Of a DNA stretch of 57,991 nucleotides, positions 2,647-37,899 are shown piece after piece. The stretch lies in assembly GCA_038243585.1 (NCBI GenBank), contig JBBSQY010000019.1, forward strand, positions 1 to 57,991, written 5' to 3'. Position 1 is the first letter of the stretch. Every line of letters begins with the position of its first letter. The position numbers and the translations under genes were made by a program. Under the pieces are notes generated by a model. That model was not told where the DNA came from. It worked only from the letters and a program-made list of their open reading frames with translations, and searched no databases. The DNA comes from Candidatus Sumerlaeales bacterium (GTDB lineage: Bacteria > Sumerlaeota > Sumerlaeia > Sumerlaeales > Sumerlaeaceae).

Positions 2647-3081
2647 TTACGGTGCGACCTCAATCGTTGGTCGCTCAGCCGGAGCCGCTGGAGCAGTTGT
2701 CGTTGCCGGTGCTGAGCCCGCCCTGCTGGCATTGCGATCCATGCTTGTCCGAATATCGCTGGCACCCTGCTGCACGGCTGCGGCCAGTTCCCGAAGAGCC
2801 GCGGCAATGTCGCGATTAGACGCGGCAACTTCGCTGGTCGCGGCCGCTACGGCCACGTCCTGCGTCTGCGGAATTGTGGAGTCGATAATGACGCCAGTAT
2901 CCGTTTTTTCCAGATCAGTAACGTTGCGGCGATCTACATTCACTCCGGATCGGCCGATTTGCGCCTGCGCCGATCCAATTACTCCCACACCGTAATCACG
3001 AGCCAAACCACCCAGCATCAAAAGCGCAATGGCGGTGAGAATCATGTTGGTGTAGATCCTGGTGTCAATTCGAGGCGTCAT
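2647..3081 (-). CDS. Hypothetical membrane-anchored/exported protein
   Basis: AAGGAG SD; N-terminal hydrophobic helix (YTNMILTAIALLMLGG); Ala/Pro-rich tail. Confidence 0.75.
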   Translation of the reverse strand: MTPRIDTRIYTNMILTAIALLMLGGLARDYGVGVIGSAQAQIGRSGVNVDRRNVTDLEKTDTGVIIDSTIPQTQDVAVAAATSEVAASNRDIAAALRELAAAVQQGASDIRTSMDRNASRAGSAPATTTAPAAPAERPTIEVAP

Positions 3082-3114
3082 CCTCAGTTTCTCCTTCGTT
3101 ATTTTAATTATTTT

Positions 3115-3840
3115 TTAATCCTGAGAACGCAGATAATATGACAGCGTCTCCATTTCAATGGATAAGTCAACATAATGCACCTTCACTCCTTCAGGAACAG
3201 TCAACCGCTTGGGAACAAAGTTAAGAATGCCCTTGATTCCGGCTGCCACGAGTCGATCCGCCATACCCTGACAGGCATCGACAGGCACCGCAAGCACCCC
3301 AATATCCGCCCCGGATTGTTTAAGACGATCTTCCAACTCGTCAACATGATACACGGCGAGATCTCCACGGCTTGAGCCGACCTTTCGCCGGTCCGCATCA
3401 AAAGCCATCTCAATTTTGAAACCCTGCCGGTTAAAGCCGCCATAAGATACCAGCGCCGAACCGAGATTTCCCACGCCGACCAGAATGACTCGCACCTCGC
3501 GGTCGGTTCGCAAAATCCGCTTCAGGTTCTCCCGAAGGTCTTTAATGTAATAACCAAAGCCGGGAACGCCAAACTGCCCAAAATAAGCAAGATCCTTGCG
3601 AACCTGGGCGCTGTTGATCCCCAGAAGGTCCGCAAGTTCGGAGCTACTGATCTTTTCAACAGTGTTCAGTTCCAGATCGCTGAGCAGGCGACTATATAAC
3701 GCAAGACGCCGCACGACGGCAGACGGAATCTTATCCAGGCGAGGAGGCTGCTCCAGATCGAACTGTTCATCGCTGTCGGGGCGAAGTGAAAATCTTATGT
3801 TATTTTGAAACCTCATGATAGCGGAGACCGGACCTGACAA
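3115..3840 (-). CDS. rex: Redox-sensing transcriptional repressor Rex
   Basis: RRLALYSR, ISSSELA, QVRKDLAYFG winged helix; VGVGNLG NAD-binding motif; GILNFVP; true start uncertain. Confidence 0.93.
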   Translation of the reverse strand: MSGPVSAIMRFQNNIRFSLRPDSDEQFDLEQPPRLDKIPSAVVRRLALYSRLLSDLELNTVEKISSSELADLLGINSAQVRKDLAYFGQFGVPGFGYYIKDLRENLKRILRTDREVRVILVGVGNLGSALVSYGGFNRQGFKIEMAFDADRRKVGSSRGDLAVYHVDELEDRLKQSGADIGVLAVPVDACQGMADRLVAAGIKGILNFVPKRLTVPEGVKVHYVDLSIEMETLSYYLRSQD

Positions 3841-34930: not shown

Positions 34931-35334
34931 GCGTTCTCGCAAAAAAGTATAACGAGTTTCGAATCAGGCATACGCATCCGGGGGCAACTACTATAAGACA
35001 TTGCTGGACGCACAATTTCGCGCAATCGACAACCAAAGATCCGCTACCTTGTAACTCTTTAGATATAAGTCATCGGCATTTAAAATTGATATTTTTAAAA
35101 ATAGCTGTTGACCATTTACACTCGGGGTTGCCTAAGAGTTATTCAACATCCGGTTAGTTGACTGATCTTATTAGTAGCAATGCAAGTTGGTTTTACTGGC
35201 CGGGAATTCGCTAACATTGTCGCTCTGAGTAAAGCTTATAGTTTTGCAATGGCCGCATTTATTAGTTGTAGCATTAACGGTTTTTTTATGATGTTTTCAC
35301 ACGCCCTTTGCTTGCTTAGGGATGTACCCGTAAT

Positions 35335-35608
35335 TTTATCTTTGAAGTAACGGAGGATAATTTAAGACCCGGAACCTCACCATGCAAGGCAGGTTTACCC
35401 CGTTAAAGGGATTCCCCTGGTTTTACCCTGTACCAATACTTGTTGTTGATGTGAACGGTTTCTTGCAACGCCAGAAAAGCTTGTTTCAATTTCTCTCAAC
35501 GGCGTCAGGCAAGGAGTCGAACCACCCTCGCAAAATTCTACGGCAGCCCCCGGCGCCGTCCACAAGATTGCGAAACATGTCATCCTCCAGCAACCAATTA
35601 GGGGTTAT
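35335..35608 (+). ncRNA. Candidate structured leader RNA, copy 1 (before amidase 1)
   Basis: GGAGGAT 257 nt before ATG; UCGCAA...UUGCGA-AACA stem enclosing an ACGGC(A)GCC/GGCGCCGU hairpin. Confidence 0.45.
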
Positions 35609-36562
35609 ATGAAAAACGTAAGTGCAGTTTTATTGGGAGCAGTTTGCACCCTCACAGTCGGCGCAGCATCGGCCGCAACCCCGGATCTTTCAAGCTGCGA
35701 CTCATGGCGTCCGGCAGCAGCAGGCAATTACGCCGCTTCCTCCCGTCCAAGCAGCTATCCTATTCAGTACGTTGTGATTCACAAAGTCCAGGGAACCGCC
35801 TCTAGCGCCGCTTCCTGGTTTCAGAACGGAGCCGCAAACGTCTCGGCTCACTTCACATTCGACAACAGCAGTGGATACTGCTACCAGTCCGTATTGGAAA
35901 AAGATATCGGCTACCACGCCGGAAACTTTACATATAACCAAAGGTCCGTAGGTATTGAACACGGCGGTTATGTGACGAGCAACGACACATCGACAGCTTG
36001 TTACAATGAAAGCGCGATTGAAACCAAAAGCTGCATCGTTTACTACGATGTAACCCACTCTCGCAGCCGCATCCTCGGTCATAATGAAGTACCCGGCGCA
36101 AACCATACGGATCCAGGGCAGTATTGGAACTGGACCTATTACATGAGCAAGTGCAACCCAACGCCTCCACCTGCCGGAGCCAATTATATCGATGACTCGC
36201 CTTCAGCTGCATCCAGCTGGGCGTCATCCACGTCCGCTGCAGATAAATACGGCGCCAGCTATTTGTGGCATTCGACAGCAGCCGTAAGTGATCCTGCATC
36301 GTGGACGATCAGCGTTCCGACCACAGGCAATTACGATATCTCTGCATGGTGGACCGCAGGCGCAAATCGCTCGGCAGCGGCTCCTTATGTACTGCCTGGT
36401 GGCGGCACTGTTACCAAAAACCAGCAGGGCAGCGGTGGGGCTTGGAATCTTCTAGGCACCAAATCGCTGGCCAGCGGCAACCAGACCACACAGCTCTCAG
36501 TATGGGCTGCCGGCGGTTACATTGTTGTAGCTGATGCAGTTAAGTACTTCGGCCCTAAGTAA
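35609..36562 (+). CDS. Secreted N-acetylmuramoyl-L-alanine amidase (Amidase_2) + C-terminal golvesin-like domain, paralogue 1
   Basis: Signal peptide; VVIH, SAHF, YHAGN, SVGIEH, GHNEVP, HTDPG; ANRS..APY and VVADAVKY. Confidence 0.92.
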   Translation: MKNVSAVLLGAVCTLTVGAASAATPDLSSCDSWRPAAAGNYAASSRPSSYPIQYVVIHKVQGTASSAASWFQNGAANVSAHFTFDNSSGYCYQSVLEKDIGYHAGNFTYNQRSVGIEHGGYVTSNDTSTACYNESAIETKSCIVYYDVTHSRSRILGHNEVPGANHTDPGQYWNWTYYMSKCNPTPPPAGANYIDDSPSAASSWASSTSAADKYGASYLWHSTAAVSDPASWTISVPTTGNYDISAWWTAGANRSAAAPYVLPGGGTVTKNQQGSGGAWNLLGTKSLASGNQTTQLSVWAAGGYIVVADAVKYFGPK

Positions 36563-36614
36563 ATCTATCCAATCTGCTTAGTTCATTCCGATGAACTGAA
36601 CATGGATTTTATTA

Positions 36615-36908
36615 GCGGGGGGAAGCGTCCTCAACAGCACAGAATTCGTTGGATGACGCTTCCCCTCAATTTAGAAGGAGGATTTAAGCTCTCACCAATC
36701 TCTCCCACGCGTACAAGTCTCATCTACGAGAAACACCCTGTAGTTTGTAAAAATAATCAGGTACAGCTGCCATCGCTCGTAAACAATAGCCTAACCCGGC
36801 GGCTTCCCTGAATCTGTATCGCTGCTTTACTGATGGTCATCGGTCATCGGGCGCAAAGAGCGAAACATCTTTACGAAATCCAAATGGATTTAAGGGGTTC
36901 AGAAAGAA
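36615..36908 (+). ncRNA. Candidate structured leader RNA, copy 2 (before amidase 2)
   Basis: 11-bp stem 36619-36665, GGAGGAT, CAGG/CCUG stem, UCGC...GCGAAACA module, AAAUCC/GGAUUU hairpin next to the SD. Confidence 0.55.
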
Positions 36909-37457
36909 ATGAAAAAAATTGCAATCGCAATCCTCGGCGCCGCATGCGCCCTTATGGTCAGTGCCGGCTTTGCCCGTACGCCTGATCTGCCAAGCTGCGA
37001 CTCATGGCGTCCAGCTCACTCTGGAAACTACACAAACTCATCCAGGCCGAGCAGCTACCCAATACAGTATGTTGTTATACATAAAGTGCAGGGCTCTGCC
37101 GCCAGTGCCGCATCGTGGTTCCAAAATGCAGCCTGCAACGCTTCCGCGCACTTCATATTTAACAACAGTTCCGGATACTGTTACCAGTCTGTGCTTGAAG
37201 AAGATGTTGCATGGCACGCCGGAAACTGGACCTACAATACGAAATCCGTGGGTATCGAGCATGGTGGTTATGTTACCAGCAACGACACCGCCACGGTCTG
37301 CTACAATGAAAGCGCTATTGAAACAAAGAGCTGCATCATCTACTACGACGTGACCAAGTCTCGCAGCCGCATTCTTGCTCACAGCGAAGTACCGGGCGCG
37401 ACTCACACAGATCCAGGCCAATATTGGAACTGGACCTATTACTTTAGCAAGCTGTAA
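36909..37457 (+). CDS. Secreted Amidase_2, paralogue 2 (catalytic domain only)
   Basis: Near-identical catalytic domain; stop exactly at the domain boundary (YYFSKL*). Confidence 0.92.
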   Translation: MKKIAIAILGAACALMVSAGFARTPDLPSCDSWRPAHSGNYTNSSRPSSYPIQYVVIHKVQGSAASAASWFQNAACNASAHFIFNNSSGYCYQSVLEEDVAWHAGNWTYNTKSVGIEHGGYVTSNDTATVCYNESAIETKSCIIYYDVTKSRSRILAHSEVPGATHTDPGQYWNWTYYFSKL

Positions 37458-37581
37458 TAGTATTATCAAATAGCACCGATTAAGTGATTAGCCGGAGCCT
37501 CGGCCAATCAGTAACATTGCTCTTTTAATTCTCTTTTTCAGCTGTGGGATAGTCACCGGCCCACAGCCTGAAATCACCCCT

Positions 37582-37899
37582 GCGGGGAGGCAACGCCTGA
37601 TCGGCAACTGTAACCGGCAACTGGCTGAGCGTTGCCTCCCTCGAATTTCTCGAAAGGAGGATATTGCAAGACCCCGTCGCGCAAATCAACAACGTTAAAT
37701 TTGTGCGCACACTTTGGCCTTCAAGGTCACCGAAGACTACCAGGCAGACTTTGCTACCAATGCCGCCGCCATGTCGGGGGCGACATGCGGAGCCTGTAAA
37801 ATCTATCGCGGCTTTACCAGTGCCTGCCGGCGCTGCGAGGAAAGTCGCGAAACACCGGTGAAACAAAATCCAATGGATTTAAAAAGGGGTTCAACTATA
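37582..37899 (+). ncRNA. Candidate structured leader RNA, copy 3 (before amidase 3)
   Basis: 12-bp stem 37585-37640, GGAGGAT, CAGGC/GCCUG stem, UCGCGGCUUU/AAAGUCGCGA-AACA module, AAAUCC/GGAUUU hairpin next to the SD. Confidence 0.55.

Follow-up and report, generated by a model that had tools for sequence, protein, structure and literature searches.

A Shine-Dalgarno sequence without a start codon ahead of Sumerlaeaceae wall-hydrolase genes, a possible STAB-SD-like stabiliser

Three consecutive amidase genes in the genome of a Candidatus Sumerlaeales bacterium (assembly GCA_038243585.1, contig JBBSQY010000019.1; the 57,991 nucleotides (nt) analysed are called the window) are each preceded by a long leader in which the same elements recur in the same order, and they raise the question of what such leaders are for. 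A first-pass annotation had listed these elements, labelled (a) to (e), and all of them are present where it placed them in the three leaders. It had proposed that they form an undescribed cis-regulatory RNA kept by selection. Our comparisons support leaders which are structured, cis-acting and under selection, and which are absent from Rfam; the single conserved, multi-stem, riboswitch-like RNA was not supported. What had been overlooked is the nature of element (b), GGAGGAT. Judged by its sequence it is a Shine-Dalgarno (SD) sequence with no usable start codon behind it, here called the orphan SD, and it is the best-conserved and most widely shared feature of the leaders. On balance we lean towards its being a 5' stabiliser similar to the STAB-SD of Bacillus thuringiensis cry3A, at which a docked 30S subunit would block RNase J.

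The orphan Shine-Dalgarno sequence and its distribution

The window is contig C19 of a 3.4-Mb source genome (G000) which is approximately 90% complete. Leaders of the amidase subfamily were gathered from the genomes of relatives and from metagenomes; 26 were close ones, including the three of the window. One of these (L043) possessed only 100 nt of upstream sequence and was excluded, as were the distant matches L034 and L055-L059, leaving 25 leaders. The homologue sets are matches to the window protein and do not represent a census. Since the 16S end of G000 lies outside the assembly, the 3' tail of 16S rRNA was taken from three relatives, one of them from the same genus, and a contiguous match of at least 7 nt to its complement served as the SD criterion. 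The background set comprised the 864 G000 genes with at least 200 nt of free upstream DNA. Scoring by duplex energy, in which G-U pairs are allowed, separated the sets poorly (15/25 against 15.7% of the background) and was abandoned in favor of contiguous matching.

A match of at least 7 nt is found 181-260 nt upstream in 14 of the 25 subfamily leaders, including leader 2 (7 nt) and leader 3 (9 nt) of the window. By comparison, 27 of the 864 background genes carry one on the sense strand and 34 on the antisense strand, while dinucleotide shuffles gave 3.5% and at most 4/25 over 300 rounds. The motif is not confined to this subfamily. Of 29 further wall-hydrolase genes with a Golvesin tail, 18 have it at 90-290 nt upstream, several as perfect matches of 12-13 nt, and it is present in the Amidase_3 (9/16), second Amidase_2 (5/8), M23 (2/2) and SpoIID (2/2) classes, and in none of the GH25 class (0/1); 27 of these proteins were classified by Pfam and the remainder by reading of their N-termini. 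Among other Golvesin-tailed genes it precedes only two of 21, both with doubtful start calls. Over 35 sites the commonest base equals the 16S complement from position -5 to +8, a result which is partly circular. Across the upstream regions of G000 as a whole, strong SD motifs were not enriched on the sense strand (96 versus 156 antisense); the orphan SD is therefore no general feature of long leaders. The distant homologues of the window amidase, which occur in myxobacteria, Longimicrobium and haloarchaea (L183-L240), carry the motif at background level outside the phylum (3/54, with 4 of the 58 skipped).

That these sites start no gene is suggested by several observations. Of the 35 sites, 6 have a start codon 3-10 nt behind the motif, fewer than the 11.0 +/- 2.8 seen in shuffles, and no peptide is common to them; four orthologous leaders with matches of 8-13 nt keep no common start codon. 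In leader 3 a TTG, which is not kept in the closest relative, lies 3 nt behind the orphan SD and opens a frame of 65 codons. The three sites of the window lie in intergenic DNA on the coding strand, and transcription through them is assumed. Pairing with the 16S tail is predicted to be favourable at 33 of 33 sites, the duplex having a mean energy of -15.8 kcal/mol versus a mean cost of 5.6 kcal/mol for opening the site.

Several further loci touch on this motif. An M23 gene leader in another genome (L064, G009:C39:128074) contains two tandem SD-like motifs approximately 34 nt apart. In G000 a 3D-domain protein without a Golvesin tail (L178:73-618; G000:C3:19269-19817) has AAAGGAG 339 nt upstream and may join the same set. 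Sites of GAAAGGAGG were examined in G007 (30 of 41) and G009 (30 of 50); the crude open reading frame classifier used there miscalled known cases and no count was drawn. In G009, 14 of the 30 examined sites fall within a dispersed, REP-like repeat containing GAAAGGAGG, some copies being 77-229 nt apart (L130, L133, L136, L137 and others).

Structure and conservation of the leaders

The elements of the three leaders are as follows.

35317-35324 and 35511-35516: weaker SD-like sites, leader 1
35352..35358, + strand: orphan SD, leader 1; GGAGG core with a contiguous 16S-tail match of 5 nt, no start codon behind
35528..35577, + strand: hairpin (d), leader 1; UCGC/GCGA helix followed by AAC
35600..35606, + strand: start-proximal SD of gene 1
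36619..36665, + strand: stem (a) between genes 1 and 2; arms 36619-36629/36655-36665, no U-tract
36675..36681, + strand: orphan SD, leader 2; 7-nt 16S-tail match, no start codon behind
36758..36810, + strand: stem (c), leader 2; weakly supported (z = -1.4)
36819..36867, + strand: hairpin (d), leader 2
36876..36899, + strand: hairpin (e) and start-proximal SD of gene 2
37585..37640, + strand: stem (a) between genes 2 and 3; arms 37585-37596/37629-37640, no U-tract
37652..37660, + strand: orphan SD, leader 3; 9-nt 16S-tail match, only a TTG 3 nt downstream
37741..37796, + strand: stem (c), leader 3; weakly supported (z = -1.1)
37806..37854, + strand: hairpin (d), leader 3
37866..37891, + strand: hairpin (e) and start-proximal SD of gene 3

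GGAGGAT begins at 35352, 36677 and 37656, that is 257, 232 and 244 nt before the ATG codons at 35609, 36909 and 37900; GCGAAACA begins at 35570, 36860 and 37847, and AGGGGTT at 35600, 36893 and 37885. The pattern GGAGGAT..AAG..GCGAAAC occurs three times in the 3.4-Mb genome, always in the window, and BLAST of the three leaders against their own genome revealed no further copies.

Folding agrees with the first-pass annotation that a strong stem (a) is present in copies 2 and 3 and missing from copy 1: the z-scores are -3.9 and -3.5, with none of 200 shuffles as good, and the corresponding stretch of copy 1 scores -0.6. Its stem (c) fared less well, for the arms exist in copies 2 and 3 and the fold is weak. 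The region from (d) to (e) gave z = -2.3, -1.2 and -3.3 in copies 1, 2 and 3. The AAG said to follow GGAGGAT holds for the window copies and is absent from the closest relative of leader 3, and the pairing of GGAGGAT with an upstream CCTC does not hold in relatives, where the predicted intramolecular partners of GGAGG are scattered from -78 to +252 nt with none fixed. In a wider comparison, all four scored array-internal copies have a strong stem ahead of the orphan SD (z from -2.4 to -4.2) and the first-gene copy has none, a distribution consistent with a function in the upstream message. Of the 31 leaders scored, 8 reach a z of -2.

The four-fold degenerate codon positions of gene 3 and its closest relative (L040) are saturated, with 15/57 identical. 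Their leaders are identical at 11/11 positions of the upstream motif, at 58/137 in the middle and at 70/99 over the last 100 nt or so, a profile which indicates that constraint is concentrated in element (b) and in the 3' domain. Alignment of 17 homologous leaders yielded no consensus fold, a weak test given that the alignment was made on sequence only, and the only blocks shared over the 17 are the upstream GGAGG-type motif and the start region. Nor did a sequence alignment of the three window copies give a common fold.

The compensating changes claimed for hairpin (d) were recovered as covariation in a seven-sequence alignment. In the seven leaders carrying GCGAAAC, 88.5% of cells pair versus 75.1 +/- 3.1 in shuffled alignments (0/500), controls in which the hairpin was slid pair at 28-46%, and one pair shows four pair types. 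The score is inflated, since possession of GCGAAAC was the basis for selecting these seven leaders and the structure itself was deduced from them. Of the 15 SD-bearing leaders of the subfamily, 7 contain GCGAAAC, against an expectation of 0.36; without the three discovery copies the count is 4 of 12. It occurs in one of 18 leaders of other hydrolases and is missing from the other eight of the 15, including L054, the closest relative of a carrier. A covariance model of the hairpin (R1), of the kind suggested in the first-pass annotation, refound only its training set (best other E = 0.037). Hairpin (d) is thus covarying and constrained in sequence, and may bind a factor.

The first-pass annotation could not match the leaders to a known riboswitch class. 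Rfam likewise has no family that reaches its gathering score in the window leaders or at any of 20 related loci, and the three sub-threshold matches in the window had E values of 0.17-8. Resemblances to the hammerhead, RNase P, cobalamin and ydaO RNAs found no support in Rfam. The cyclic di-AMP (ydaO) riboswitch is associated with wall hydrolases and likewise forms a long structured leader upstream of peptidoglycan hydrolase genes. Unlike it, the window leaders gave no match at E values up to 10 and have no family-wide conserved core.

Leaders of the Amidase_3 genes show the same layout, in which the orphan SD is followed by a short spacer, by two or three hairpins that differ from those of the window, and by the real SD. 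In five of them 6 of 15 pairs are changed on both sides, as in only 2 of 500 shuffles. The shared design is thus an orphan SD followed by a hairpin chain, and not one fold. In four relatives (L005:728-873, L006:726-876, L007:2533-2682 and L008:719-870) the second hairpin of the Amidase_3 leader has a similar 7-nt loop, and a hairpin masks the real SD, making it a candidate point of translational control. Amidase_3 leaders from the genus of the window (L029, L030, L004, L173:460-610 and 3000-3127) contain a covarying hairpin followed by an AAC-type linker, an arrangement similar to hairpin (d) of the window in spite of the unrelated genes.

Possible function of the orphan Shine-Dalgarno sequence

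If the orphan SD is a stabiliser, it would dock a 30S subunit through the 16S tail and so block the 5'-to-3' exonuclease RNase J. The transcript of the array may be cleaved within the short, A/U-rich stretch that separates stem (a) from the orphan SD; stem (a) would then guard the 3' end of the upstream message and the docked 30S subunit the 5' end of the downstream one, giving stable single-gene messages. The hairpin chain (c)-(e) might protect the approximately 230 untranslated nt behind the roadblock from endonucleases. The outcome would be a high and sustained output of secreted wall hydrolases.

The gene content of the family is compatible with this scheme. TIGR00649, which we take to be RNase J (the model itself is labelled MG423), scores over its cut-off in G000 and in 11 of 12 relatives, which makes 12 of 13 family genomes; the thirteenth has a split match. 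RNase Y and Rho are present in G000. CsrA (PF02599) was not found in G000, at 90% completeness and with that genome alone searched, and neither was Hfq in the same genome.

A STAB-SD is SD-like, initiates no translation, binds 30S subunits and blocks RNase J1 (PMC4113751). Where an organism lacks RNase E, a strong SD is described as sufficient even if no start codon follows it (PMC3997798), and the mark of ribosome protection is a stop of RNase J 8 nt ahead of GGAGG (PMC12067863). As far as can be judged from sequence, the orphan SD resembles a STAB-SD in its testable features. For accessibility the predictions are mixed, the site being no more open than in controls and its net pairing energy with the 16S tail being favourable. 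Like the site of cry3A (PMC4113751, PMC12970973) it is far upstream, SD-like, non-initiating and complementary to 16S rRNA, in an RNase J host and ahead of an abundant or exported product. The stable end of cry3A lies at -129; here the orphan SD is 232-257 nt upstream, and a stable 5' end would be expected a few nt ahead of it. Unlike cry3A, the leaders have a covarying hairpin chain behind the SD and a GC stem before the array-internal copies, they are common to genes with unrelated catalytic domains, and the Sumerlaeota lineage also possesses RNase E/G. The sites proposed for Listeria inlAB, inlC and uhpT (PMC5449094) are similarly start-less, with long leaders and several genes, mostly for surface or secreted proteins as here; they are described as directly behind the transcription start, whereas the internal copies in the window follow a stem. 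In B. subtilis hbs and yrzI (PMC12067863, PMC5737220), after a cut by RNase Y or another endonuclease, a ribosome sitting on a very strong SD halts RNase J and leaves a heel-print 8 nt before GGAGG; that SD is a real initiation site, and the orphan SD starts no gene. At yflS (PMC5419742) a G-rich leader site is likewise paired to block RNase J. There the partner is the C-rich small RNA RoxS, at the extreme 5' end; here it is the 16S tail that matches the motif from genus to genus, and the analysis found no conserved small RNA.

A number of points weigh against a stabiliser. The site of copy 1 matches the 16S tail over only 5 nt and is not among the 14 of 25, and 11 of the 25 leaders fall below 7 nt. 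The predicted unpaired fraction of the orphan SD is 0.28, versus 0.30 in shuffled controls. Whole-leader folding is modest (mean z -1.4, 13/33 below -1.5; -0.6 for copy 1 and -0.3 for copy 2), and a strong stem also precedes four leaders outside the array-internal set. RNase E/G is encoded by 11 of 12 relatives (11 of 13 family genomes); it was not found in G000, where in view of the relatives it is nevertheless likely to be present, and RNase E can bypass 5' stabilisers according to the title of a reference in PMC3997798. The conserved GCGAAAC is left unexplained, hairpin (d) being more conserved than a stabiliser needs. The related loci are statistically non-independent by kinship, and each step beyond sequence and gene content is one that we infer.

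The orphan SD might instead be a standby or relay site which preloads 30S subunits, or captures those finishing the upstream gene, for the weaker start-proximal SD; it would then raise translation and not stability, although the two roles are compatible. Most leaders that carry the orphan SD match the 16S tail over a greater length there than at the proximal SD, standby sites approximately 100 nt upstream are described for tisB, and eight operon-internal leaders without a strong stem have the orphan SD 3-42 nt past the upstream stop codon, which fits a ribosome relay as well as it fits a stabiliser. We nevertheless regard this as unlikely: opening the start regions costs no more than in the background (7.8 versus 8.0 +/- 3.4 kcal/mol), leaving no special need for standby, and a strong SD duplex that lies 230-260 nt upstream, with several hairpins in between, should retain the 30S subunit. 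A marginally less probable idea is that hairpin (d), alone or with (c) and (e), binds a specific protein or ligand which switches translation, the orphan SD being accessory. It would account for the enrichment of GCGAAAC, for the pairing of (d) above shuffles and for a 3' end of approximately 100 nt which is 71% identical where neutral sites are saturated; in addition, the start SD of copies 2 and 3 has predicted pairing partners in the sequence 5' of (d). It has to contend with the lack of an Rfam match, of a terminator and of a detectable CsrA in G000, with the eight leaders lacking GCGAAAC, with a covariance model limited to its training set and with the preselection of the seven sequences. 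Least probable of all, and in our opinion very improbable, is that the orphan SD starts short leader peptides (attenuation) or forms one arm of an intramolecular two-state switch. The six sites with a start codon in range, the 65-codon frame of copy 3 and the mostly paired prediction for the SD core speak for it; the rarity of starts relative to chance, the absence of a shared peptide or of a common start in orthologues and the scattered partners speak against it. Blocking the orphan SD lowers the predicted opening cost of the start site by more than 1 kcal/mol in 4/33 leaders and raises it in 7/33 (mean 8.1 versus 7.7 for random blocks), so that no coupling between the two is predicted, which also speaks against a riboswitch.

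Trans-acting small RNAs with anti-SD sequences could also be the partner of the orphan SD, blocking or licensing decay as RoxS does at the 5' end of yflS (PMC5419742). G000 has candidate intergenic anti-SD stretches at C13:52093, C13:52200 and C24:6430; the C13 seed has 9-nt matches in the M23 and SpoIID leaders, and for the C24 stretch a pairing with the amidase leader on C15 is predicted at -29 kcal/mol. BLAST of the C13 stretch against 12 relatives gave no significant homologue (best E = 0.037), the orphan SD spans the family and extends into 16S-specific flanks, Hfq was not detected in G000, and copy 3 pairs best with the 16S tail; for copies 1 and 2 the candidates come within 1.5 kcal/mol. 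We hold this explanation to be quite unlikely. Combining these elements, the orphan SD may be a shared post-transcriptional control point of Sumerlaeaceae wall hydrolases at which 30S subunits and anti-SD small RNAs compete and set the lifetimes of messages, hairpin (d) binding a further factor, a proposal which we offer as speculation with a small chance of being right.

The anti-SD loci have some features of their own. The C13 locus (L096:190-310) is an intergenic region with two 16S-tail-like copies on the sense strand, spaced 107 nt apart. The C24 stretch (L097:175-210) is C-rich and lies between hairpins upstream of a gene read as ilvE; its pairing with the C15 leader is possibly a chance match of G-rich and C-rich tracts. 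An intergenic region of C31 (L098:95-430; G000:C31:17500-17830) has two diverged tandem copies of approximately 150 nt followed by an anti-SD-like motif.

The STAB-SD is established on cry3A and has been proposed for a few other Firmicute genes (PMC4113751, PMC12970973, PMC5449094). Here a STAB-SD-like signal is found repeatedly before genes that form one functional class and differ in their catalytic domains, which are unrelated; their phylum is uncultured and has RNase J, RNase Y and, in most relatives, RNase E/G together. The full-text literature, with subscription journals mostly outside it, returned nothing which pairs Sumerlaeota with Shine-Dalgarno sequences or with riboswitches. If a stabiliser is the right explanation, ribosome docking would be a class-wide device for the expression of secreted wall-cutting enzymes, and a stem, a spacer and an orphan SD would form a compact signal splitting an array into stable single-gene messages. 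It yields a base-level prediction for 5'-end data, and moves an apparent new riboswitch to a known mechanism.

The amidase genes

The genes served by the three leaders, and the end of the array, are listed below.

35609..36562, + strand: gene 1; Amidase_2 and Golvesin_C domains, 317 aa
36909..37457, + strand: gene 2; Amidase_2 only, 182 aa
37900..38853, + strand: gene 3; Amidase_2 and Golvesin_C domains, 317 aa
38882..38911, + strand: intrinsic-terminator-like hairpin after gene 3, closing the array

As the first-pass annotation had noted, no canonical terminator separates the three genes. The N-terminus of the gene 1 product reads as signal-peptide-like. Among named organisms, Candidatus Sumerlaeota and Sumerlaeaceae have the amidases closest to these. 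A genome of the same genus has a single amidase copy ahead of the same response-regulator gene, from which the triplet is probably a local duplication. Gene 2 ends directly after the amidase domain and, unlike its neighbours, has no Golvesin tail.

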